A program made the translations under genes and the position numbers. Of a DNA stretch of 64,000 nt, positions 4,489-52,428 are shown in pieces. Numbering within the stretch: position 1 is the first letter of the stretch; each line of letters opens with the position of its first letter. The notes under the pieces are model-generated. The model was not told the DNA's origin. It searched no databases and saw nothing but the letters and a program-made list of their open reading frames with translations. Source of the DNA: Dehalococcoidia bacterium (GTDB lineage Bacteria; Chloroflexota; Dehalococcoidia; SM23-28-2; RBG-16-64-32); assembly GCA_963665775.2 (NCBI GenBank), contig CAXXTF010000002.1:1024001-1088000 (forward strand), read 5' to 3'.

Positions 4489-5680
4489 TGACCTGCCCCC
4501 CTAAACGCTACCACAGGCTATGATTAGTGTGGCCATCGCCGTAGTCTCCAGGGATGCCGCGGTGGAGCCCGGCCATGGCACGATCGCTTGCGGTGCTGGC
4601 GGCCGGTAGCCGAGAGCGCTATGCGGGCGCACCTCGTTGTAGTTCCGTCGCCACCGCTCGCAGAGGACCTGTGCTTCCAGCACCGTGTCGAACACCTCCC
4701 CATTCAATAGTTCATCACGTAGCTTCCCATTGAACGACTCGATGTAGCCGTTCTCCCAGGGGCTCCCGGGCTCGATATACAGAGTCTGCACGCCTACCCG
4801 CTCTAGCCAGGTCCGGAGCGCACGTGCCGTGAACTCTGGCCCGTTGTCCGAGCGCAGGTAGCCAGGCACTCCCTTGTGAACTCGTCCAGCACCGTCAAGA
4901 GCCGCAGGGGACGGCCGTCGCTGGTGCGGGTAAACACGAAGTCGTAGCTCCAGACGTGGTTAGGCTCAGTCAGCCTGAGCCTAACGCAGGAGCCGTCTGT
5001 CAACCAGAGCCGCCTCCGCTTCGGCTGCTTCGCCGGCACCTTCAGGCCTTCCCGCCGCCAGAGCCGCTCTACCCGCTTGTGGTTCACCCGAAAACCCTCC
5101 TCTCGCAGCAGGGCGGTCACCCGTCGGTAACCGTAGCGCCCGTACTCGGTCGCTAGCTCCACCATCCGCCTCAGCAGCCTCCCTTCATCGTCGGGAGGAG
5201 AACCCCACCGCCGCTGCGTCGATCGCTCCTGCCCCAGGGCCTGGCAGGCCCGGCGCTCCGAGATGACCGCGTGGCCCAACGCATTCCGCACCCAGACCAC
5301 CGCCTGTCGTCTCTTGGCCGGGCTCAGAAGTTTCCCTGCGCCGCCTCCTTCAGGATGGCGTTGTCCAGGGAGAGATCGGCTACCAGCTTCTTCAGCCCCA
5401 GGTTCTCCTGCTCCAGCTCCCGCAGCCGCTTGGCCTGCTCCCTCCTCAGGCCGCCCTACTCCTTCCGCCAGCGGTAGTAGATCTGCTCTGCCACGCCCAG
5501 CTTCCTGCAGACCTCGGGCACAGCCAGGCCCTTAGCCAGCCCGACCTCCGCCTCCCTCAACTTGTTGATGATCTCCTCTGCCGTGTGATGCTGCCTGCCC
5601 AATCCTTCTGCCCCCTTTCTCTGGCCCAGAACCCCTGATTACTAACATTGGGCCTGGACTCGTTTTCGGGGGCAAGGTCA
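4489..5680 (-). mobile_element. IS3-family insertion sequence (IS407-like), degenerate
   Basis: Imperfect terminal inverted repeats with TG..CA ends (TGACCTGCCCCCCTAAACG and TGACCTTGCCCCCGAAAACG). orfA/orfB organisation with a GGGAAAC slippery site at 5330-5336. No obvious target duplication. Confidence 0.9.
4501..5602 (-). pseudogene. IS3 transposase orfA/orfB pseudogene
   Basis: orfA 5602-5324 (MGRQHHTAEEIINKLREAE..YYRWRKE*GG..LDNAILKEAAQGNF) has an in-frame TAG at 5456-5458. orfB ([37 protein letters not shown]) is frameshifted at about 4861-4873. Confidence 0.88.
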
Positions 5681-9048: not shown

Positions 9049-10332
9049 ATGACCAATCCAACAGACCGACCGTTAGCTGCGCCCGACCTCTCCGACCTGA
9101 CCATCGATGGGATGATCAGGGAGCGTTACGACGGCCGCGACGAGCGGGACATTTTCGCTAAGGCGTACGAGTTTACCCTGGCCGAGCAGGCGCGATCCGT
9201 CCAGCTCTACCCCTTCTTCCAACCGCTAGACAAGAACGACGGCCCAGAGGCCCAGATATACGGTCGCCAGGTCCTTATGCTGGGCTCCAACAACTACCTG
9301 GGCCTGACCCGCCACCCCAAGGTCATGGAGGCGGCCCGTGACGCCATCAGCCAGTACGGCAGCTCCATGACCGGATCCCGCCTCCTCAACGGCAGCACAC
9401 ACCTCCACGAAGAGCTGGAGGAGCGAATAGCCCGCTTCCTGGGCAAGGAAGGGGCCCTGGTGTTCACCACTGGCTATCAGGCCAACCTGGGCACCATATC
9501 GTCGCTCGTCGGCCGACACTCCGTCGCCGTCGTCGACAAGTTGGACCACGCCAGCATCTACGACGGTTGCCGTCTGGCCGACGGCGAGATGATCCGCTTT
9601 CGCCACAACGATGCCGACAACCTCGATTCGGTGCTCAAACGCGTGGACAAGGGGAAGGCCTGCCTGGTGATCGTGGATGGTGTATTCAGCATGGGCGGCG
9701 ACATCGTCGACCTGCCACGAATTGCCGAGGTGTGCCGGCGGCATGGCGCTCGGCTCCTGGTAGACGATGCCCACGCTACCGGAGTCCTCGGCCAGGGAGG
9801 GCGGGGCACCGCCAGCCACTTCGGTATAGAGGACCAGGTAGACCTGATCATCGGCACCTTCTCCAAATCGCTCGCCTCCATCGGCGGCTTTGTAGCCGGG
9901 CCCAAAGTCGTCCTGGAATGGATAAAGCACTTCGGCCGCGCTATGATGTTCAGCGCCAGTCTGCCGCCGGCCTCCACTGCGGCGGCCATGGCCTCCCTGG
10001 AGGTTCTGGAGGAGGAGCCGGAGCTGACGCAGAAGCTGCTGCGGCTGGCCGCCCTCCTCCGGGACGGTCTCCGCCAGATCGGCTTCGATGTCGGCGATTC
10101 CCAGACGTCCATCGTCCCCGTCAAAATCGGCGACGAATACGCCACCGTTCTCTTCTGGAAGCTCCTCCTAGAGCACGGCGTCTACACGAACCCCATCATC
10201 TATCCAGCCGTGCCTATCGGCAACGCGATGCTGCGCACCAGCTGCATGGCCACCCACACCCAGGAACAGATCGAGACGGCCCTGGAGCAGTTCCGAGCCG
10301 TCGGTCGCGAGCAAGGGCTCATCGCCGAGTAG
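9049..10332 (+). CDS. spt: Serine palmitoyltransferase (alpha-oxoamine synthase family, PLP-dependent)
   Basis: LYPFF, GSNNYLGLT, GSRLLNGS, TTGYQANLG, DHASIYDG, DDAH, PLP-lysine motif GTFSKS and FSASLPP. These variants fit bacterial Spt better than BioF or Kbl, and the gene context agrees. Confidence 0.82.
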   Translation: MTNPTDRPLAAPDLSDLTIDGMIRERYDGRDERDIFAKAYEFTLAEQARSVQLYPFFQPLDKNDGPEAQIYGRQVLMLGSNNYLGLTRHPKVMEAARDAISQYGSSMTGSRLLNGSTHLHEELEERIARFLGKEGALVFTTGYQANLGTISSLVGRHSVAVVDKLDHASIYDGCRLADGEMIRFRHNDADNLDSVLKRVDKGKACLVIVDGVFSMGGDIVDLPRIAEVCRRHGARLLVDDAHATGVLGQGGRGTASHFGIEDQVDLIIGTFSKSLASIGGFVAGPKVVLEWIKHFGRAMMFSASLPPASTAAAMASLEVLEEEPELTQKLLRLAALLRDGLRQIGFDVGDSQTSIVPVKIGDEYATVLFWKLLLEHGVYTNPIIYPAVPIGNAMLRTSCMATHTQEQIETALEQFRAVGREQGLIAE

Positions 10333-10355
10333 CCGAGAGCGGTACACGAAGGGCG

Positions 10356-11489
10356 ATGACGGCGACCGTAACCTCGGTCGACGGCAAAGGCGACCTGGAA
10401 GCCTTCCTCAGGCTGCCCTGGCGGCTCTATGACGGCGACCCGAACTGGGTCCCGCCCCTGCTGCGGCTCCTCCGAGAAGAGCTCTCGCCACGCCACAACC
10501 CGTTCTTCCAGCATGCCGATGTCCAGCTCTTCCTCGCCAGACGCGACGGTCAGGTAGTGGGCCGCCTCTCCGCCCAGATAGATCACGAGCACAATCGGTA
10601 CCACAAAGAGCGCACCGGCTTCTTCGGCTTCTTCGAGGCGGAGAACGACCCGGAGGTCGCCGCGGCCCTCCTGGGCAGGGCCGAGGAGTGGCTCCGCCAG
10701 CGGGGCATGGACCGGGTGCGAGGTCCCCTCAGCTTCTCCATAAACGGCGAGGTCGGCTTCCTGGTCGAAGGCTTCGACTCACCGCCGATGATTATGATGC
10801 CGTACACGCGGCCCCACTATCTCGACCTGCTCGAGCAGAGCGGTTATGTCAAGGCGCAGGACCTCTTCGCCTGGCGCTGGGAGCGTCAGCCGGTCCCTGA
10901 AGGTCCGGCCCGCATTGTGAAGGAGCTTCGTGAGAGGCCGGAGGTGAAGGTGCGGAGGGCCAACCTGCGCCGCTTCGATGAAGAGATGCACACTATCCTC
11001 GATCTGTTCAACGAGGCCTGGAGCGAAACCTGGGGCTTCGTCCCTGCCACTGAGGCCGAGGCGAAGAAGCTGGCCCGGGAGATCCGTCTCATCGCCGACA
11101 CCAATATCGTTCCCATGGTGGAGATCGACGGCAAGGTAGCAGCCGTGGCCCTCGGCCTCCCCAACCTCAACGAGGCGATCCACGACCTGAATGGCCGCCT
11201 CTTCCCCATCGGTTTCATCAAGCTCCTCTGGCGCCTCAAGGTGCGGCGGCCGAAGAACGGGCGTCTCATCCTTCTGGGGGTGAAGAAGGAGTTCCGCAAC
11301 CGACGCTACGCCGGACTGGCCTATCTCCTCTGCGACGAGATCTATCGCGGCGCCAAGGCGAGCGGCTATGAATGGGCGGAGTTCTCCTGGACACTGGAGG
11401 ATAACCGGCTCATTAACACCATGATCCAGAACGTAGGCTGCGAACGCTACAAGACTTATCGCGTCTACGAGAAGGCTCTGGCGACATGA
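10356..11489 (+). CDS. GNAT-fold N-acyltransferase, bacterial ceramide synthase (bCerS) family
   Basis: FLRLPWRLY..DPNWVPPL, NPFFQHA, GFFGFFE, RGPLSFSIN..GFLVEGFD..MMPY, YVKAQDL, FNEAWSETWGFVP, EFSWTLEDN. Starts 23 nt after the spt stop. Confidence 0.8.
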   Translation: MTATVTSVDGKGDLEAFLRLPWRLYDGDPNWVPPLLRLLREELSPRHNPFFQHADVQLFLARRDGQVVGRLSAQIDHEHNRYHKERTGFFGFFEAENDPEVAAALLGRAEEWLRQRGMDRVRGPLSFSINGEVGFLVEGFDSPPMIMMPYTRPHYLDLLEQSGYVKAQDLFAWRWERQPVPEGPARIVKELRERPEVKVRRANLRRFDEEMHTILDLFNEAWSETWGFVPATEAEAKKLAREIRLIADTNIVPMVEIDGKVAAVALGLPNLNEAIHDLNGRLFPIGFIKLLWRLKVRRPKNGRLILLGVKKEFRNRRYAGLAYLLCDEIYRGAKASGYEWAEFSWTLEDNRLINTMIQNVGCERYKTYRVYEKALAT

Positions 11490-12469
11490 GGGTGCTGGTC
11501 ACCGGCGCCACCGGCTTCCTGGGCTCACACATCGCGGAGCAGCTAGCCAGGGACGGCCACAGCGTCCGGACGTTGGTGCGCCGGAGCAGCAACCGCCGCT
11601 TCCTGGCAGCCTTCCCTCATGAAGAGGCGATAGGAGACGTGACCGACCCCTCGTCTCTGCCCCAGGCCCTGGACTCGGTCGATGTCGTAGTCCACGCCGC
11701 CGGTCTCGTGAAGGCCCGCAGCGCCGCCCAGTTCGATGCCGTGAACGCCGGTGGCACGGCCAACCTGCTGGCCGCCGCGGACGAGGCGACACCCGACCTT
11801 CGCCGCTTCGTCTATATCTCCAGCCTTGCCGCTCATGGCCCCAGCGAGGACGGCCGGCCCCGCCCCGTGGACGCCCCAGCCAATCCCCTCACCGCTTACG
11901 GCCGAAGCAAGCTCCGCGGCGAGGAGCTGGTTGGCGCCTGGAGCGGATCGAGCCGCGCCGTGATCATCCGGCCCGCGACGGTCTACGGCCCACGCGATCC
12001 TGGGCTACTGCCGTTCTTCAGCCTGACTCGCTGGCGGCTCGCCCCGCTGCTGATGGGCGGACGCAATCGCATCTCCATCATCTATGCGGAGGACGCCGCC
12101 CGCGCCATCGCCCAGACCTGCACCGCCGAGGCGGAGGTAGCCGGCAAGACCTATTTCCTGGACGACGGCAACGTCTACTCCTGGCGCGACCTCCTGGCCG
12201 CCGTCGAGGAGGCAGTGGGGCACAGGGCACTCCGCCTCAATTCCCCCCACTTTGCCTTCAATGCCGCCGCCCTGGTCAGCGAGACCTACGGCTTCATCCT
12301 GCGCCGCCCCGTCATGCTGACCCGCGAAAAGGTGCTGGAGATGAGCCAGCCCTACTGGGTCTGCTCCTGCGAGATGCTAAGGCAGGACATCGGCTGGTCT
12401 CCCCAGATCGATATCACAGAGGGAGCGAAGCTGACGGCCCAGTGGTATCGGCAGCAGCGCTGGCTCTAG
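11486..12469 (+). CDS. NAD-dependent epimerase/dehydratase (extended SDR), putative ceramide reductase (CerR-like)
   Basis: TGATGFLG Rossmann motif, HAAG, YISSLAA, catalytic YGRSK, RPATVYGP. ATGA overlap with the upstream gene. The CerR function is inferred from context. Confidence 0.72.
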   Translation: MRVLVTGATGFLGSHIAEQLARDGHSVRTLVRRSSNRRFLAAFPHEEAIGDVTDPSSLPQALDSVDVVVHAAGLVKARSAAQFDAVNAGGTANLLAAADEATPDLRRFVYISSLAAHGPSEDGRPRPVDAPANPLTAYGRSKLRGEELVGAWSGSSRAVIIRPATVYGPRDPGLLPFFSLTRWRLAPLLMGGRNRISIIYAEDAARAIAQTCTAEAEVAGKTYFLDDGNVYSWRDLLAAVEEAVGHRALRLNSPHFAFNAAALVSETYGFILRRPVMLTREKVLEMSQPYWVCSCEMLRQDIGWSPQIDITEGAKLTAQWYRQQRWL

Positions 12470-12486: not shown

Positions 12487-13575
12487 CTACCGGCCAACAG
12501 GGGGCTCAGGGGCAGCCGCCTCCAGAGCGGAGGCCTCCCCAGGCCCACCAGCAGGCTTCCGCAGGGTGAGGATATCGGCGGGGCGCAGCCGTAAGCCAAA
12601 CGCCGCCATGGGCCCCGCAACGATGTAGGGCAGGACGAAGAACAGGTGCGCGAAGATGGCGTAGGCGGCGGCTTCCGCTTCCCCGACACCGAAGGCGAGC
12701 AGAAGCCCGGCGATCGCCACCTCGAAGACGCCCAGGCCGGCGAACGTAAAGGGCACCGAGAACGCCACAGCCGCGGCCACCACGACCAGCAAATAGACCG
12801 CCGGCGATATCTCCAGTCCCAGCGCTCGGCCAAAGCAGTAGTACATGAAAGCTTCCAGGAGCCAGGCTGCGTGAGCGCTCCAGCCTATCTGAAGGAGGGC
12901 AGATGGCCGGCGCAACGCCTGTAGTCCGTCCGCGAAGCCCTGGATCTCCCGTCCTACCCAGGCGCGCAGCCGTCCCTGCCCCGCTCGATCCGGCGAGACG
13001 GCCCAGCGCCCAGCGTGTGTTATCAGGTGACGAGCGCTAAAGGCGCCCGCAAGGATGAGCGCCCAATAGCCGATGGCCAGAGGCCATAGCATGGCCGCCT
13101 CCTCAAACAGCAGAAACCCCACCACAATGAAGGTGGAGAAGACGACCACATCCGCCAGCTTCTCGGTGACGATCGTCGCCGCAATGCTGGAAGCGTTGAG
13201 CCCAGTGCGCCTGCGCACAACCTGAACGCGAACGATCTCGCCGACGCGGAAGGGGAGAACGATGTTGGTGGATACGCCCAGCAGGGCCGTGCCGAATAGG
13301 AAAGTCACGCCCACATTTCGCATGGGCCTCAGGAGAGCCTGCCAGCGGATGGCACGGAACCAGTCGGAGGCGATATTAGCGGCGAAGGCCAGAGGCAGCC
13401 AGATAAGGTCAGCCTGCCCGATCTGCGCCCGAACAACGGCCCGGTCAACGCTAAGGAGGAGCGCCGTCAGGAGGCCGCCGGCCAGGGCCAGCTGCACCAG
13501 CAGGCGAAGGAGCGGATACACCCCTCGGTGCAGCCTAGGGGCCCCCTCGGCCGCGATCTCCTTCTGGTACTCCAT
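12487..13575 (-). CDS. Lysylphosphatidylglycerol synthase TM-domain / flippase-like membrane protein (UPF0104)
   Basis: Multi-TM protein with RAIRWQALL, NIVLPFRVGEIVR, TEKLAD and PFTFAGLGVFE motifs. Confidence 0.85.
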   Translation of the reverse strand: MEYQKEIAAEGAPRLHRGVYPLLRLLVQLALAGGLLTALLLSVDRAVVRAQIGQADLIWLPLAFAANIASDWFRAIRWQALLRPMRNVGVTFLFGTALLGVSTNIVLPFRVGEIVRVQVVRRRTGLNASSIAATIVTEKLADVVVFSTFIVVGFLLFEEAAMLWPLAIGYWALILAGAFSARHLITHAGRWAVSPDRAGQGRLRAWVGREIQGFADGLQALRRPSALLQIGWSAHAAWLLEAFMYYCFGRALGLEISPAVYLLVVVAAAVAFSVPFTFAGLGVFEVAIAGLLLAFGVGEAEAAAYAIFAHLFFVLPYIVAGPMAAFGLRLRPADILTLRKPAGGPGEASALEAAAPEPPVGR

Positions 13576-16998: not shown

Positions 16999-18933
16999 CT
17001 AGGGCAGCTGCTCGTGCTTCAGCGCGGCGATGAAGGGGAGGCTACGGAACCTCTGATGAAAGTCCAGGCCGTAACCCACGACGAACTCGTCGGGGACCTC
17101 GAAGCCCACGTACTCCAGCGGCACATCGACGATGCGCCGGGCCCTCTTGTCCAGCAGGGCACACACTAGTATTGAGGCGGGACGCTTGGTATTGAGATAC
17201 TCCAGGATGTGATTGAGGGTCATCCCCGTGTCGACGATATCCTCCACTAGGATGACGTCACGACCCTTGATATTCTCATCCAGGTCCTTCAAGATGCGCA
17301 CCACCGGCGCCCCGTTCACATCGTAGGAGGAGATGGACATGAAGTCCACAATGGTGGGTACGGAGACGTGCCGCATCAGGTCCGCCATAAAGCAGAGAAC
17401 ACCCCGTAAAACACCGATGAGGATGGGCTCCTTGCCCGCGTAGTCACGGCTGATCTGCGCCCCCAGCTCCCCAACGCGCTGCTGGATGCGATTGGCGGTT
17501 ACCAGCACACGGCCGATTTCCGGAACCTGGTCCGGCGAGAGGGGGCCGTAGCCGTATTTGAGTAGAAGACGCAGGTAGTCGCGCTTCTTCAGCAGGATTA
17601 TATTGGTCTCCGGATAAAGCTCCTTGAGTAGCCTCATCTTGCGGTTCTTCTCTGCCGTGAGACCGGTCTTCAGGGTTGTGAGTTCCACGTACATGTTCAC
17701 GTCCGGCAGGTAGAAGTCCGGCGTGAAGGCCTCGGTGACCCGCCCGCGCTCCTGGCGCAAAGGGAAAGAACGGGGCTCGTAGTGCCAGTCGATACCGTAG
17801 AAGTCCAGGATGCGGGCGAACTCATACTCCGCCGGATGGGCGAAGGGCGGGGGTACCTCACCTTGCGGCGCGCCGGTAATTGGTGCCGGGAGTCGAGCCC
17901 TAGCGACCGGAGGACTAGGGCGGCGAGCCTCTGAGGCAGCCGCCTTCGGGACAACGACGTCGGCAGCGGCTTCCGGCGTCCGGCGACGCTGGCGGACGCC
18001 CCGCTGGCCACCAGCAGCCGCTTCGGGCGACGGCTCAGCAACCGCCGGACCGGCAGCCACCGGTTTAGGCGTCTCCTCCTTCTTCCTCCGACGCCCCCGG
18101 CTGGTGCGCGACGGCGCACGCTCCTCGACTTCCGCGACGGGAGCGGGAGTATGGAGAGCAATCGTCGGCACCGGCGAGGGAGCGGGCTCCGCCCCTGCCG
18201 CCTCCGAGGACCCACGATGACGGCGTCCTCCCCGACTACCCCGACGACGCTTCGGCTGCGCCTCTTGTTCGACGGGGGCGCCGGTATCCTGGGGCTGTGG
18301 CGCACGCTCCTCGACTTCCGCGACGGGAGTGGGAGTATGGAGAGCAATCGTCGGCACCGGCGAGGGAGCGGGCTCCGCCCCTGCCGCCTCCGAGGACCCA
18401 CGATGACGGCGTCCTCCCCGACTACCCCGACGACGCTTCGGCTGCGCCTCTTGTTCGACGGGGGCGCCGGTATCCTGGGGCTGTGGCGCACGCTCCTCGA
18501 CTTCCGCGACGGGAGTGGGAGTATGGAGAGCAATCGTCGGCACCGGCGAGAGAGCGGGCTCCGCTCCTACCGCCTCCGAGGCCCCACGATGACGGCGTCC
18601 TCCCCCGCTACCCCGGCGACGCTTCGGCTTCGCCTCCGGGGCCGACGGCGCTTCGGAGTCCTGGACTTGAGGCTGCCGTGGCGGGGTGTCCTGAGAATAC
18701 GCCGGAGCAGCCTCGGTAGGCGCCCCAGGCTGGTTGTGCCGGCGGCCGCCGCGCGCACCCCCACGTCGCCTGGGCTGCGGCTCAGATGGGGCTGCCGGCG
18801 CCGACTCGGGCAGCGCCGGCGGTGGAAGAGGAGGAAGGACGGGGTGACCTCTACGAGAAGCCAGACCTCTGATATCAGGGGCGGCGCTGGCGCCTCCCAC
18901 CGTCTCTATCGGATTATTAGTGGCACGTGCCAT
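16999..18933 (-). CDS. hpt: Hypoxanthine phosphoribosyltransferase fused to a PD-(D/E)xK-like domain and a long disordered N-terminus
   Basis: C-terminal HPRT motifs GVLRG, MSISSY, VILVEDIVDTGMTL, LLDK, FVVGYGLD. Middle domain FAHPAEYEFARILDFYGIDWHYEP..FTPDFYLP..YVELTT. N-terminal ~360 aa rich in Pro/Ala/Arg. Confidence 0.85.
   Translation of the reverse strand: MARATNNPIETVGGASAAPDIRGLASRRGHPVLPPLPPPALPESAPAAPSEPQPRRRGGARGGRRHNQPGAPTEAAPAYSQDTPPRQPQVQDSEAPSAPEAKPKRRRGSGGGRRHRGASEAVGAEPALSPVPTIALHTPTPVAEVEERAPQPQDTGAPVEQEAQPKRRRGSRGGRRHRGSSEAAGAEPAPSPVPTIALHTPTPVAEVEERAPQPQDTGAPVEQEAQPKRRRGSRGGRRHRGSSEAAGAEPAPSPVPTIALHTPAPVAEVEERAPSRTSRGRRRKKEETPKPVAAGPAVAEPSPEAAAGGQRGVRQRRRTPEAAADVVVPKAAASEARRPSPPVARARLPAPITGAPQGEVPPPFAHPAEYEFARILDFYGIDWHYEPRSFPLRQERGRVTEAFTPDFYLPDVNMYVELTTLKTGLTAEKNRKMRLLKELYPETNIILLKKRDYLRLLLKYGYGPLSPDQVPEIGRVLVTANRIQQRVGELGAQISRDYAGKEPILIGVLRGVLCFMADLMRHVSVPTIVDFMSISSYDVNGAPVVRILKDLDENIKGRDVILVEDIVDTGMTLNHILEYLNTKRPASILVCALLDKRARRIVDVPLEYVGFEVPDEFVVGYGLDFHQRFRSLPFIAALKHEQLP
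18113..18636. repeat. 186-bp (62-codon) tandem repeat, about 2.8 copies, within the hpt fusion
   Basis: Units start at 18113, 18299 and 18485 (GGCGCACGCTCCTCGACTTCC). The first two are nearly identical; the third is partial and more diverged. Confidence 0.93.
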
Positions 18934-34684: not shown

Positions 34685-37669
34685 CTACGTTCGGGCCGCC
34701 ATCTCCCGGACGATCTCCGGTACTGCCGCCAGCGCCTCGTCCAGCTTCCGGGGGTCCTTGCCGCCGCCCTGCGCCATCTCCGGCCGGCCACCGCCGCCGC
34801 CGCCGGCGATTGTGGCGACCCGCTTCAGCAGCTGGCCGGCATGCTGGCCACGCTGAGTGAGATCGGGGCTCACTATCGCCACGAACTGCGGCCGACCCTC
34901 GATGGCACTGCCCAGCACGGCCACGCCGGAGGAGATCGCCTTGCGAACGCCGTCGCCGAGGTAGCGGAGGGCGTCCAGGCTGGGGGCGTCCACCCGGGCA
35001 GCCAGAACCCGAACGTCGCCCACCTCCACGGCACCCTGAAGAAGCTGCTCGGTGGTGGGGGCCGAGGCCAGGGAGCGCTCCAGCCGCTCAATGCGCTTGC
35101 GCTGAGCGTCGATCTCGGAGAGGAGGGCCTCGACCTTGCCTGGCAGGGCGTCCCGGGGAGCGCTCAGACGGCGGGCCATCTCGTCCAGGGCGGCCTGCTG
35201 GCCACGCACGTACTCCTCGGCGCCGCGGCCGGTGAGCGCCTCGATGCGGCGCATGCCGGCGCCGATGGAGGACTCGCCGGTGATGAGACAGTAGCCGATG
35301 TCGCCGGTGTGATGGCAGTGGGTACCGCCGCACAGCTCGGCGCTGAACCTGGGGACGACGGAGTTGACCTCGACGACGCGGACCTCCTCGGCGTACTTCT
35401 CGCCGAAGAAGGCGAGGACGCCCTCGCTCATCGCCTGATCGAAGCTGGTCAGCCGGGTCTCGACCTGGAGGTTCTGGCGAATCTTGTCGTTCACCAGCCG
35501 CTGCACCTCGGCGATCTGCTCCGACGTCATCGCCTCCGTATGGGTGAAGTCGAAACGCAGGTGGTCCGGCGCGACCAGGGAGCCGGCCTGGCGGACGTGG
35601 CTGCCCAGGACGCGACGCAGAGCCGCGTGGAGAAGGTGGGTGGCGGTGTGGTTGCGCATGGTGTCGGCGCGGCGCTGGGGGTCCACCTGAGCCTTGACCG
35701 TCTGGCCGACAGCGATGCGCCCTTCGACAACGCGGCCCCGGTGGACGATGAGCCGCTCGGCGACGCGCTGGGTGTCCTCCACGGCCATGCGACCCTGCGG
35801 CCCGACGATCTCGCCCTGGTCGCCCACCTGGCCGCCGCCCTCGGGGTAGAAGGGGGTCTCGGCCAGGAGAACCTCCACCTCGGCGGGTGGCTCGGCAGAC
35901 TCGATGGCCGCTCGTGGTTCGACAGGCTCACCATGAGCGGCCTTGTCCTCCGCTCGTCCTGAGCCCGTCGAAGGGCGAGTGGCGATGATACCGAGAACCG
36001 TGGTCTCGGTTTCCAGCGTCTCGTAGCCGCAGAAGGCGTTCTCCGTATCACCTAGGGAGGCGTAGACCGCCTCGGCAGCCACAGCCCCGGCGCCTTTGGC
36101 GGCGGCGCGCGCCCTCTCCCGCTGCCGCTCCATTAGCGCATCAAAACCGGCCTCGTCCACGGTGAAGTCGCGCTCGCGGGCGATCTCTCGTGTCAGCTCA
36201 ATCGGGAACCCGTAGGTGTCGTGGAGGAGGAAGGCTTCTCGCCCGCTTAGTGTCCGGCTTGGCGAACCACCACCCCTTAGGCTGTCCTCCAATTCGGGGC
36301 GGGTTATTTCGTCAATTATCGCGTTTCGCTGTGCTTTATCAGCGTAGCCCAATATCTCATTATGTCTATTTCCGAGCGACTCAGCTAAGCCAATAGCCAT
36401 AACCTTAAACGCCATTATCTCTGTCAGTAGCTGCTCGCCAGAAGTCAACGTCCTTCGAGACTGCTGCTCTTCGCTAATGATGGCTTCGAGGATGAATTCC
36501 CTCTGCCTTTGGATTTCCGGATACGCTGCCCGCACAGACTCTACAACTTGCTCCATTACCGGCACGAGGAACGAGTTCCCTGCTTCCCATTTCTGCTTTA
36601 GCTGTTTGACATGAATGCGCCGCGCGAGTTCCTCAACAGAGAGCTCATTAACCGCCCCTTCGCCGTCAGGATGGCGCACCCGTGCCAAATCTAGTAAATG
36701 GAGCTGATAGTACATGGTTCGCCTTAGGAGCTTCCGCACAACGTAGCCTTGCTCCTCCTTGGAGGGTAAAACTGGAGTCTGTTCATCGCCTATCAAGAAT
36801 GCCAGAGCCCTACTGTGCTCCGCCACGATTCGGATCGCGCGGTCGGTGGCCTCGTCCTCCCCGTAGCGCCTGCCGGACAGCTCCTCGATGCGACCGATGA
36901 TGGGCTGGAACAGGTCCGTATCGTAGACGGACGGGAGCCTGGACTTGTCCCAGCCTTCGCTCTCGAACAGGGAGGCCACCGCCATTCGCTCCAGGCCGGC
37001 GCCGGTATCGATGTTCCGAGAGGGCAGGGGGTCGCGCTTCTCGCCGTCACAGAAGTAGGACATGAAGACCAGGTTCCAGATCTCCAGGAAGCGGTCGCAC
37101 TCCTCGTGGTCGGGCTCGCAGGCGGGGCCGCAGCCGAACTGAGGGCCGAAATCGTAGTGGAGCTCGGAGCAGGGGCCGCAGGGGCCGACGTCCCCGGAGA
37201 ACCAGTAGTTATGCTCCTCCCCATAGCGACGGATGCGCTCCTCGGGCACGCCCACCTTGCGCCAGAGATCGAACGCCTCGTCGTCGTCCAGATAGACGGC
37301 CGGCCACAGCCGATCGGGGTCCAGGCCCAGCCAACGCTTGGAAGTGACGTACTCCCAGGCCCAGGGGATCGCCTCCGCCTTGAAGTAGTCGCCCACAGAG
37401 AAGTTGCCCAGCATCTCGAAGAAGGTGAGGTGGGAGGTATCGCCCACGGAGTCGATGTCGCTGGTGCGGAAGCACTTCTGGACGGTCGTCAGGCGGGGGT
37501 GAGGGGGCTTGGCCTGGCCCAGAAAGTACGGCTTGAACTGGACCATGCCGGCGCTGGTGAAGAGCAGCGTCGGGTCGCCGGCAGGCACGAGCGGGGCGCT
37601 GGGCAGCCGCCGATGGCCCCGCTCCTGGAAGAAGCGGAGAAAGGATTCGCGGACGTCGTAGGAGTTCAA
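34685..37669 (-). CDS. alaS: Alanyl-tRNA synthetase (with insertions)
   Basis: DPTLLFTSAGMVQFK, HLTFFEMLGNFS, EIWNLVF, IDTGAGLER, HDTYGFP, TPFYPEGGGQVGD, NHTATHLLH, ELCGGTH, GGGGRPEMAQGGG. Probable TTG start at 37669. Confidence 0.97.
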   Translation of the reverse strand: MNSYDVRESFLRFFQERGHRRLPSAPLVPAGDPTLLFTSAGMVQFKPYFLGQAKPPHPRLTTVQKCFRTSDIDSVGDTSHLTFFEMLGNFSVGDYFKAEAIPWAWEYVTSKRWLGLDPDRLWPAVYLDDDEAFDLWRKVGVPEERIRRYGEEHNYWFSGDVGPCGPCSELHYDFGPQFGCGPACEPDHEECDRFLEIWNLVFMSYFCDGEKRDPLPSRNIDTGAGLERMAVASLFESEGWDKSRLPSVYDTDLFQPIIGRIEELSGRRYGEDEATDRAIRIVAEHSRALAFLIGDEQTPVLPSKEEQGYVVRKLLRRTMYYQLHLLDLARVRHPDGEGAVNELSVEELARRIHVKQLKQKWEAGNSFLVPVMEQVVESVRAAYPEIQRQREFILEAIISEEQQSRRTLTSGEQLLTEIMAFKVMAIGLAESLGNRHNEILGYADKAQRNAIIDEITRPELEDSLRGGGSPSRTLSGREAFLLHDTYGFPIELTREIARERDFTVDEAGFDALMERQRERARAAAKGAGAVAAEAVYASLGDTENAFCGYETLETETTVLGIIATRPSTGSGRAEDKAAHGEPVEPRAAIESAEPPAEVEVLLAETPFYPEGGGQVGDQGEIVGPQGRMAVEDTQRVAERLIVHRGRVVEGRIAVGQTVKAQVDPQRRADTMRNHTATHLLHAALRRVLGSHVRQAGSLVAPDHLRFDFTHTEAMTSEQIAEVQRLVNDKIRQNLQVETRLTSFDQAMSEGVLAFFGEKYAEEVRVVEVNSVVPRFSAELCGGTHCHHTGDIGYCLITGESSIGAGMRRIEALTGRGAEEYVRGQQAALDEMARRLSAPRDALPGKVEALLSEIDAQRKRIERLERSLASAPTTEQLLQGAVEVGDVRVLAARVDAPSLDALRYLGDGVRKAISSGVAVLGSAIEGRPQFVAIVSPDLTQRGQHAGQLLKRVATIAGGGGGGRPEMAQGGGKDPRKLDEALAAVPEIVREMAART
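35911..35979. repeat. 69-bp imperfect palindromic element inserted in frame in alaS
   Basis: Arms CTCGTGGTTCGACAGGCTCACCATGAGCGG and CCGCTCGTCCTGAGCCCGTCGAAGGGCGAG (23/30 complementary). Encodes roughly RPSTGSGRAEDKAAHGEPVEPR. Confidence 0.8.
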
Positions 37670-37730
37670 CTTGAGTGGATTATAGCGTGTCCGCGGGGGA
37701 TGGGACACGGCGGGCGGCGGGCGGCTCCGC

Positions 37731-50211: not shown

Positions 50212-52428
50212 TTGAGCACACTCAGGTTTCTCGCTGTCGGAGTTGTCGCCGCCCTCCTCGCCGTCGGCTGGCAGTCGGCCAGGGCCGACGAACTGCTGAC
50301 CAACGGCGGCTTCGAGGCCGGCATCGCGGGATGGGAGGCAACCCAGGGAGAGCTCACGACAGTGGGATCGCCGGCACATGGCGGCTCGGCCGGCGGCCGG
50401 CTTAGCGGCGATTCCCCGCAAGTTCACGAAGTGTACCAGTGGCTGGAGGTGGCACCCGGTCAGACGTACACGTTCAGCGGCTGGGTCGTTCTCAACGACG
50501 CTACGGTCGAGCGGATATTCCTGCGGATACGCTGGTTCGACAACGGCGGCTCGCTGATCAGCTCCACGGATTCTCCGTGGTTGACGACCCTGGACAGTGC
50601 CTACCACTCCCTGAGCACCGGCCCACAGATATCGCCTCCGGCTGCGGTGACAGCACGAGTGGGGGTGATGATACAGCCCCTTAACGAGCTGTTCACGGTC
50701 TACCTTGATGACTTCTCGTTCCAGGGCCCGGCGCCACCCACCCCCACCCCCACGCCCTCTCCGACGCCAGCTCCAACGCCCACACCCGCGCCCACACCCA
50801 CGCCCACACCGACGCTTTCGCCTGTGCCCACGCCACCCGCCACGGTCACCCCCGCTCCTACATCCGCGCCCACACCCGCGCCGTCGCTCACGCCAACGTC
50901 CACACCCACACCCGCCCCATTGCCCACACCTGCACCTACAACCGCGCCCATGCCTACACCCTCGCCTTCTCCCGGCCCCACACCGGCACCGACGCCCACA
51001 CCCACGCCTACACCCCTACCTACATCGACCCCGACCGCCGCTCCCCCACCCGAGCCCCCCGTCTTCCCGGCGCTGGCCAACGGCGGCTTCGAGGAGATGC
51101 GACCCGACGGTACGCCCTTCGGCTGGCGAAAGTTCGGTGGTACGATGGCCCTCACCACTACCCCCCGCACCCAGGGCACATTCGCTCTCGCCTTCGCCTC
51201 CCAAACGAGCTCCACCAAGTGGGCCTACCAGGCGGTCGCCCTGCAAGGCGGCTCCTACTACAACCTGTCCGCCCAGGCGCTGATCGCCGACCCCGCTGCC
51301 GCAGCGGTATTCCTGCGCCTCTCCTGGTACAGCAGCCCGGACGGTAGTGGCGCAGCGCTAGGCTCGGTCGATTCCACGCACACCCTCAATTCAGACCAGC
51401 CGGCCTTCCGTCCACTCACCACCGGCTCCGTTCAGGCACCCGCCGAGGCCCGATCCGCCAGGATCAGGCTCATGCTCCGCCCGGCCTCGGCGGCGCCCAC
51501 CACCGTCTACTTCGATGCCGTGACCTTTCTCCAAACGGCCCCACCGACCTCCTCCTCGCCGATGTCCGAATCGACACCCACGGCCACTCCACAACCAACG
51601 CCCGCTCCTGAACCCGCCGTCTTCCCGGCGCTGGCCAACGGCGGCTTCGAGGAGATGCGACCCGACGGTACGCCCTTCGGCTGGCGAAAGTTCGGCGGCA
51701 CGATGGCCCTCACCACTACCCCCCGCGCCCAGGGCACGTTCGCTCTCGCCTTCGCCTCCCAAACGAGCTCTACCAAGTGAGCCTACCAGGCCGTCGCCCT
51801 GCAAGGCGGCTCCTACTACAACCTGTCCGCCCAGGCGCTGATCGCCGACCCCGCTGCCGCAGCGGTATTCCTGCGCCTCTCCTGGTACAGCAGCCCGGAC
51901 GGTAGTGGCGCAGCGCTAGGCTCGGTCGATTCCACGCACACCCTCGATTCAGACCAGCCGACGTTCCGGCCGCTGACCACCGGCTCCGTCCAGGCACCTG
52001 CCGAGGCCCGATCCGCCAGGATCAGACTCATGCTCCGCCCAGCCTCGGCGGCGCCCACCACCGTCTACTTCGATGCCGTGACCTTTCTCCAAACGGCCCC
52101 ACCGACCTCCCCCTCGCCAACATCGCCACCGACCGCAACAGCCGGAGAGGCGAGCACCCCCAGACCCACGCCGACCGAGGGTGGGTCGAGCGACCTCCTG
52201 CCATCGCCAATCGCGCCGTTGGGCGATGGTTCCACCCCAGGCCCGGTAGGATTGGCCAATCTGAGGGCAGAGGCACTTCCGCCGGCGCTGGAGCCGACGG
52301 CTACTGGAGGGAGAAGCTATGGCTGGGCGGTGGCACTGGCTGTGGCGGTGCCCCTGGCAACCATAGCCGTTGCGGCTGGCTACGAGCGCTGGCAGCGCCT
52401 TGCTGGCAGAGACAGGAAGAACCTATAA
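50212..52428 (+). pseudogene. Secreted, C-terminally anchored protein with three CBM4/9-like (galactose-binding fold) domains and Pro/Thr linkers, interrupted by TGA at 51778-51780
   Basis: Signal peptide, L(T/A)NGGFE..W starts and (V)Y(L/F)D ends for three domains, and a PT-rich linker. The frame continues past the TGA to a TM segment plus basic tail ending at 52428. Confidence 0.75.
51061..52118. repeat. Near-identical ~500-bp internal duplication (period 558 bp)
   Basis: 51061-51560 and 51619-52118 both start GTCTTCCCGGCGCTGGCCAACGGCGGCTTC. Confidence 0.93.

Follow-up and report, generated by a model that had tools for sequence, protein, structure and literature searches.

The closest described relatives of the locus discussed here are the ceramide systems of Caulobacter crescentus and Escherichia coli BL21(DE3), which use three enzymes: a serine palmitoyltransferase (Spt), an N-acyltransferase (bCerS, also known as Aca or YghO) and a reductase (CerR, or Epi) (PMC9386255, PMC11087976; these papers and all others cited by PMC number are drawn on in excerpt). 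The BL21 genes yghO (ECD_02850) and epi (ECD_02852) are orthologues of Caulobacter genes required for dihydroceramide synthesis (PMC9386255), and even in Caulobacter, the order of acylation and reduction is disputed (PMC11087976). Our subject is a single operon with the same three enzyme types, found in a stretch of 64,000 nucleotides (the window, below) from an uncultured Dehalococcoidia bacterium (assembly GCA_963665775.2, contig CAXXTF010000002.1, positions 1,024,001 to 1,088,000, forward strand), and our question is a narrow one: what would an organism that shows no outer-membrane markers make with it? We argue that the operon, whose products are 43%, 42% and 30% identical to those of BL21, probably follows the known bacterial route to a serine-derived membrane lipid of the dihydroceramide type.

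The likeness has its limits. In BL21, the genes are flanked by acpR, aasR and paralogues of lptF and lptG, and the Rhodobacterial Spt cluster that depends on AcpR and AasR keeps dedicated acpR and aasR genes beside spt, whereas the window operon is tight and has none of these. Caulobacter is described with a periplasmic CerR and delivery to the outer membrane (PMC11087976); because the window's host shows no outer-membrane markers, that location model cannot carry over unchanged. The Bacteroidota-type SPT of Sphingobacterium multivorum (PDB 8GUH and 3A2B; PMC10196870) is the top solved structure for our first gene, with a gap-free alignment, all 12 named active-site residues shared and a like PAVP loop, but the window Spt carries about 29 extra residues at its N terminus, falls under the CFB model's cut-off and belongs to a separate Dehalococcoidia clade. 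The cysteate acyltransferase of sulfonolipid synthesis, SulA/CapA, has the same fold family and reaction type (PMC9304779), but our gene scores 263 bits against it and 383 against SPT and has Ala303 where SulA has Lys (Lys281).

Is a ceramide route in such a lineage a surprise? The sequence-only reading made of this window before our analysis took it as one, and there it overstated the case. Spt-like proteins have been reported in 218 Chloroflexota metagenome-assembled genomes, with Anaerolineae linked to ceramides in the Black Sea (PMC11334938), and Chloroflexota have again been put forward as candidate sphingolipid producers, with a call for culture work (PMC12619533), so that the phylum was proposed in 2024–2025; the classes named are Anaerolineae and Caldilineae, and the string “Dehalococc” is absent from the text of PMC12619533 as excerpted. 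Gram-positive candidates are mentioned in PMC11087976, which also says that no flippase is known for bacterial sphingolipids. Even two monoderm hosts have the trio, with gene order and strand unchanged, on plasmids: Rubrobacter radiotolerans RSPS-4 and Streptomyces sp. NBC_01001. They belong to a different phylum, and their genes sit on other branches in all three of our trees and bear generic annotation names. Essentially, the pathway, the phylum and the monoderm host are all already known, and no new chemistry is revealed. No title or abstract start on a Dehalococcoidia ceramide operon turned up in the literature searched, which leaves most subscription journals uncovered, and what is new here is that the operon is conserved across the family, that a flippase-like neighbour recurs beside it and that the genome encodes, at another site, an enzyme that may add an inositol head group.

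If we are right, ceramide would be shared lineage-wide by several Dehalococcoidia families (10 in the class sample have both Spt and the GNAT), beyond the Anaerolineae singled out so far, and the bacterial sphingolipids reported at >20% of the lipids in Black Sea sediment (PMC12619533) would gain candidate sources. A compact cassette from a cell without outer-membrane markers would also be a clean test object for questions raised by PMC11087976: is a periplasm needed for reduction, and which flippases are involved?

Identity of the three genes

The earlier reading had named three tightly coupled genes—an Spt-type synthase, a bCerS-type GNAT and a CerR-type extended short-chain dehydrogenase/reductase (SDR)—and each of these calls has held up. 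The open reading frames, the short gap and the stop/start overlap are as described (Table 1), and all nine quoted motifs are present, four in Spt (GSRLLNG at 109, TGYQANLG at 141, DHASIYDG at 166 and GTFSKS at 269) and five in the GNAT (WVPPL at 31, GFFGFFE at 88, LVEGFD at 136, WGFVP at 226 and SWTLEDN at 344).

Gene 1 was placed in a phylogeny against Spt, BioF, Kbl and HemA. In a quick IQ-TREE tree of 125 alpha-oxoamine synthase rows (25 duplicate or near-duplicate loci omitted, matches of <250 residues dropped), it lies within a 103-row Spt clade (SH-like approximate likelihood ratio support, SH-aLRT, 100; branch 0.66) that also holds the characterised BL21 SPT together with proteins of Sphingomonas, Roseomonas, Bacteroidota and Nitrospirota, and the 22 BioF-, Kbl-, HemA-type and other rows stand apart. 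Other Dehalococcoidia carry separate BioF- and Kbl-like paralogues, which branch elsewhere in the same tree. Solved structures rank in the same way: S. multivorum SPT comes first, the other bacterial SPTs reach 304–316 bits, Kbl-type enzymes 255–280, BioF at most 217 and ALAS at most 210.

The catalytic residues agree. All 12 active-site residues named in PMC10196870 (N52, G80, S81, H138, S185, D210, A212, H213, T241, S243, K244 and M271 in S. multivorum numbering) are identical in gene 1, about half of them being common to all alpha-oxoamine synthases; R82, N85 and R367, which we added to the list, are identical too. Its G-S-R-x-x-N signature is Spt-like, where the BioF, Kbl and HemA rows read A-S-R..C or G-S-G..S, S-V-R..C and G-T-R..S, and the alanine at residue 303 recurs in 102 of the 103 Spt-clade rows and in none of the 22 others. 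Gene 1 is the sole alpha-oxoamine synthase found in its genome (G000: 2.35 Mb, two contigs, 91% complete), where neither bioB nor bioD was found and the matches to bioA and tdh are distant (28% at best and a partial 34%), so BioF and Kbl roles would be left without their partner genes.

The claim of an N-terminal extension of about 33 residues stands in part, since its length depends on the reference: it holds approximately against S. multivorum SPT (query residue 38 aligns with residue 9), but against 2JGT, the next SPT in the structure ranking, only about 11 residues are extra (query 30 aligns with residue 19). The core of the extension, I/F/V-x(5-6)-R[YF]-x(6)-D[ILV]F, is present in all 18 family Spts examined, the window's included, and a stricter [DE]R[YF][DEG] pattern in 13 of them.

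Gene 2 matches BL21 YghO over its full length (378 columns, E 3e-105) and is the sole match in its own genome with YghO as the query, which served as the comparison because Caulobacter bCerS was not among the references. Its AlphaFold model (predicted local distance difference test score, pLDDT, 93; 88-row alignment) resembles tandem GNAT acyltransferases; a fold search with that model returned generic tandem GNATs only, at 12–16% identity, and a search by sequence found no solved bCerS structure for the GNAT. Gene 3 is the reciprocal best match of BL21 Epi at 30–32% (E 3e-35), with intact motifs (a Rossmann TGATGFLG at 6, a serine near 112 and YGRSK, of the YxxxK type, at 138), and in a 75-row SDR tree, it groups with Epi and the SDRs of other trios, away from the four other extended SDRs of its own genome. 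Genes 2 and 3 are thus candidate orthologues of yghO and epi, the CerR assignment being the least certain of the three, drawn as it is from 30% identity plus synteny; blastn of the operon against E. coli genomes gave no match. Gene 3 starts directly at its Rossmann motif, and we dropped a signal-peptide argument about its location: the BL21 orthologue has the same start, and the models are not separated.

Host, membrane type and inheritance

The host was expected to be Dehalococcoidia-like and to come from a lineage without a classical lipopolysaccharide outer membrane, and both expectations agree with what we see. The window's own RpoD aligns at 69–72% with five named Chloroflexi/Dehalococcoidia genomes over nearly its full length (four from residue 2–8, one from 99), whereas against five genomes of other phyla (Polyangiales, Nitrospirae, Gemmatimonadales, Acidobacteriota and Cyclobacteriaceae), only the C-terminal half aligns, and the nearest named relatives of gene 2 (61–81%) are labelled Dehalococcoidia or Chloroflexi. 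BamA/Omp85 and LpxC were not found in the 91%-complete genome by searches that were positive in diderm controls, and LptF and LptG had no tblastn match there; by gene content, the genome fits a monoderm cell. The operon lies inside a 1.49-Mb contig among housekeeping genes, and its G+C at third codon positions (0.83–0.85) is close to that of four housekeeping genes (0.80–0.82).

The nearest GNAT and SDR outside Chloroflexota are those of a Polyangiales genome (L027:6001-8117), which nest among Dehalococcoidia sequences in both trees and have no Spt in their 6-kb flanks; an old exchange between myxobacteria and Dehalococcoidia is possible.

How faithfully is the trio inherited? Of the 24 other family genomes, 22 have the GNAT, against none of 16 from other families of the order, and the trio stands in the same order in 18 of the 19 best-scoring family loci, the exception being a contig that starts inside the GNAT. 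With all three genes together in 18 of 19 loci from other family genomes, the arrangement is not chance. We then drew an even sample of 301 class genomes, our own included, each at least 80% complete. There, 52 genomes have a GNAT match (48 at E <1e-40) and 71 an alpha-oxoamine synthase match, 47 of these at 416 bits or more, after which the scores drop to 335. The two sets overlap almost wholly: 46 of the 47 Spt-clade genomes have the GNAT, 46 of the 48 GNAT genomes have Spt, and the 46 span 10 families. The Spts of families f1, f22, f25 and f34 share one 45-row clade, those of f7, f9, f28, f35 and f57 a second. In a phylum sample of 401 genomes, all 41 with an Spt-clade match also have the GNAT.

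Outside the family, all three genes also occur together in 39 of 66 loci from named genomes (L035-L100, nearly all of other phyla), as far as the fetched flanks reach. In families f25 and f9, the GNAT stands away from the spt-SDR pair, the SDR staying with Spt in five of five long loci. In f25 (L188, L189, L190 and L192), spt and the SDR are followed by two small conserved genes (~197 and ~126 aa) without a Pfam match, and the GNAT is beside fakA/degV-type genes. Other Chloroflexota trios (L118:3795-4946 and L242:7518-8654, with homologues in L116 and L117) have between GNAT and SDR a glycosyltransferase resembling monogalactosyldiacylglycerol synthase, a candidate for glycosylceramide synthesis. 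At L243:2808-7100, a classical short-chain SDR precedes GNAT, extended SDR and Spt, which makes two reductases, and in L246, a distant GNAT adjoins a lower-scoring alpha-oxoamine synthase. The GNAT without an Spt-clade gene was seen in L216-L221 and L240 (family f95) plus 29 other phylum genomes.

Proposed pathway and competing explanations

Identity, fold, catalytic residues, orthology and co-inheritance were computed; from them, we infer the chemistry, the substrates, the order of the second and third steps and the location. Spt would condense L-serine with a long-chain acyl thioester, giving 3-ketosphinganine and CO2; the tandem GNAT would add a second acyl chain to the amine; and the SDR would reduce the 3-keto group with NAD(P)H. 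The acyl donor would most likely be acyl-CoA or acyl-AcpP, because no dedicated AcpR or AasR was found in the genome (no tblastn match for the former, 24–26% matches only for the latter) and because the genome has sources for both: acpP lies 9 kb beyond the window in a fabD-fabG-nusB-acpP run, and there are two FabF, an Aas-like fusion and a long-chain acyl-CoA ligase that clears its NCBIfam cut-off. The two PP-binding matches of the genome are AcpP and that fusion. Both donors suggested by the earlier reading, acyl-CoA and the housekeeping acyl carrier protein (ACP), are available; as it noted, the cluster itself includes no gene for an ACP or an acyl-ACP synthetase. All three enzymes would be cytoplasmic or at the inner leaflet, since none has a hydrophobic segment (no 19-residue window >1.6 in Spt, GNAT or SDR).

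Dihydroceramide would supplement ordinary glycerophospholipids in a single membrane, because the route to those is intact: PlsY, PlsX, PlsC, GpsA, CdsA and CDP-alcohol transferases are all present, which rules out ceramide as a replacement backbone. Elsewhere in the genome are a second lipid cluster (G000:C1:692-698 kb; L237), with the Aas-like fusion of AMP-binding, ACP and acyltransferase domains near a CdsA-acyltransferase fusion and a CDP-alcohol transferase, and an acetate-CoA ligase-like gene that appears in two frames (L162; G000:C1:51199-52289).

Several of our own results weigh against the proposal, and they are best set out together. Gene 1 is below the cut-off of all three NCBIfam Spt models (NF047600 CFB, SerpalmtaseCFB, 481 of 640; NF047599 BetaP, 426 of 500; NF047603 AlphaP, 345 of 670), even if the CFB and BetaP models rank first in the scan; these models are lineage-bound, the BL21 SPT passing BetaP only (it fails CFB at 340 bits) and a Bacteroidota Spt passing CFB only. 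The tree of gene 1 holds one biochemically characterised Spt, came from a quick search and drew a long-branch warning at the BL21 row. In the SDR tree, the branch uniting the trio-associated SDRs is short (0.057) and no HpnA or OleD outgroup is present, and gene 3 scores higher on HpnA- and OleD-type models (far under their cut-offs) than on the available ceramide references. Finally, 35 of the 76 GNAT-bearing phylum genomes have no Spt-clade match, so that the GNAT alone is not diagnostic, and all co-occurrence counts are descriptive, related genomes being non-independent observations.

What else, then, could the operon be? One might keep the same chemistries and change the product: the long-chain base might derive from alanine (a 1-deoxy base) or from glycine, or the lipid might be some other N-acyl amino-alcohol that is not a serine ceramide. 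In S. multivorum SPT, the same residues also bind Ala, Gly, Thr and homoserine (PMC10196870), and the amino acid is not fixed by sequence; 1-deoxyceramides are reported from the Black Sea beside candidate anaerobic producers (PMC11334938), and the Dehalococcoidia Spts form a long-branched clade of their own. Yet the serine contacts (N52, G80, S81, S243 and M271) are all identical in gene 1, and we consider a non-standard product unlikely. A doubt that concerns only the last step seems to us more improbable still: that the SDR is some other lipid- or sugar-modifying reductase and the operon stops at 3-oxo-ceramide or borrows a reductase encoded elsewhere. The modest identity to Epi, the short branch and the top library models (HpnA, OleD and 3-beta-HSD) speak for it, but it has to face the reciprocal best match with ECD_02852, the separation from the genome's other extended SDRs and the SDR's constancy beside Spt where the GNAT has moved off.

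The two remaining explanations would remove the subject altogether. That gene 1 is a BioF or a Kbl and the cluster is unrelated to sphingolipids might be entertained because it is the only member of its family found in the genome and the BioF and Kbl models score 395 and 375 bits (both under their cut-offs, 426 and 460); its place in the Spt clade, its signature residues, the biotin-synthesis and threonine-degradation partner genes not found in the 91%-complete genome, the near one-to-one co-occurrence with the GNAT and the separate BioF- and Kbl-like paralogues of other Dehalococcoidia make it hardly credible. We give just as little credence to the notion that the operon arrived recently from a known sphingolipid-making diderm phylum, or was mis-binned from one: the nested Polyangiales genes could be read so, but the housekeeping surroundings in a long contig, the matching third-position composition, the retention and synteny across the family and the nearly full-length match of the window's RpoD to Chloroflexi/Dehalococcoidia only all tell against it. 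A dihydroceramide-type product made from serine is the reading that we keep.

Operon layout, head groups and neighbours

Table 1. Features of the operon and its convergent neighbour (positions within the window)
Feature	Positions	Strand	Description
spt	9049..10332	+	427 aa; Schiff-base K273; family-specific N-terminal extension; PLP (pyridoxal phosphate)-dependent alpha-oxoamine synthase, Spt clade
spt-GNAT intergenic gap	10333..10355	+	23 nt; purine-rich stretch just 5' of next ATG
bCerS/YghO-type tandem GNAT N-acyltransferase	10356..11489	+	377 aa
CerR/Epi-type extended SDR reductase	11486..12469	+	327 aa; ATGA overlap with GNAT
LPG_synthase_TM/flippase-like multi-pass membrane protein	12487..13575	-	362 aa; convergent neighbour; Pfam PF03706 129 bits, TIGR00374 over cut-off

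The purine-rich stretch in the gap is a possible ribosome-binding site. Upstream of spt lies a divergent DUF3090 gene, and downstream of the SDR, a PAP2 phosphatase gene on the opposite strand, like the LPG_synthase_TM gene. Spt and the GNAT are each single-copy in the genome, as is the SDR, distant paralogues at 24–28% aside. A scan of the + strand for promoters turned up no sigma-70-like site 5' of spt, and the terminator-like matches score about as shuffled sequence does. One DNA sequencing run matches the stretch with a single difference, located upstream of the operon, and may come from the source sample. Three RNA runs from one study gave contigs of 159–348 nt (depth 2–5, 0–1 differences) on all three genes, one of them across the GNAT-SDR junction; RNA contigs also lie on both neighbours, and without a silent control stretch, DNA carry-over is possible, so we do not count them as expression evidence.

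What, if anything, is added to the ceramide? Clustering of flanking open reading frames at 40 loci gave no fourth conserved operon gene for a head group in family f1, the clusters recurring beyond a few loci being the trio only, plus antisense shadow frames. We have three candidates nevertheless: the LPG_synthase_TM neighbour; a cluster with myo-inositol-1-phosphate synthase (MIPS), PIP-synthase-like and GT4 genes; and a protein that joins a nucleoside triphosphate (NTP) transferase, a CDP-alcohol phosphatidyltransferase and a HAD domain. The LPG_synthase_TM gene has a close orthologue in 13 of 41 relative genomes, in 9 within ~1 kb of the SDR end, and distant homologues in most of the order, one of which flanks the trio in two of two loci of family f7; it is possibly linked to the ceramide pathway. 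The MIPS cluster (G000:C2:631.7-636.2 kb; L239:1727-6244) runs from MIPS through a PHP phosphoesterase and a GT4 glycosyltransferase, which we take to be PimA-like, to the PIP-synthase-like gene and is, judged by these genes, an actinobacterial-style inositol lipid set.

The three-domain fusion (G000:C1:73918-75966; L238:5919-7967, +) is a single chain of 683 aa. Its full-length form is present in 4 of the 301 class genomes, all GNAT- and Spt-positive, and all five full-length matches come from genomes carrying the GNAT; two-domain forms also occur in genomes without the trio. Its domain set is that of an unconfirmed alternative cluster for phosphoinositol dihydroceramide in Bacteroidota (PMC9246714), but its best NCBIfam model is an IPCT/DIPP synthase, under cut-off, and a role in the synthesis of the solute di-myo-inositol phosphate would be as likely as one in head groups.

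One may nonetheless imagine a fuller scheme, in which the family's single membrane holds inositol-phosphoceramide-like lipids: the trio would make dihydroceramide wholly on the cytoplasmic side, the fusion would add phosphoinositol, and the LPG_synthase_TM protein would be the missing bacterial sphingolipid flippase or a head-group transferase. The presence of MIPS and the fusion in the genome and the restriction of the full-length fusions seen to GNAT-bearing genomes support it, but the fusion is matched in only 6 of 25 family genomes and is not linked to the operon, and we hold the scheme to be speculative and rather improbable.

The rest of the window holds a few oddities. On the - strand, two overlapping open reading frames at 4501-5300 with HTH_21 and integrase-core domains form a transposase in pieces, presumably IS3-type; a 644-aa frame at 16999-18933 has a long, repeated Pro/Arg-rich N terminus and, at its C terminus, a phosphoribosyltransferase domain, with an unnamed domain between the two; and an AlaS of ~1000 aa at 34685-37708 has its catalytic Pfam domain matched in three stretches, which suggests an insertion. 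On the + strand, positions 50212-51780 encode a protein that looks secreted, in which a CBM_4_9 domain is accompanied by long Pro/Thr linkers and by a second domain that is repeated.

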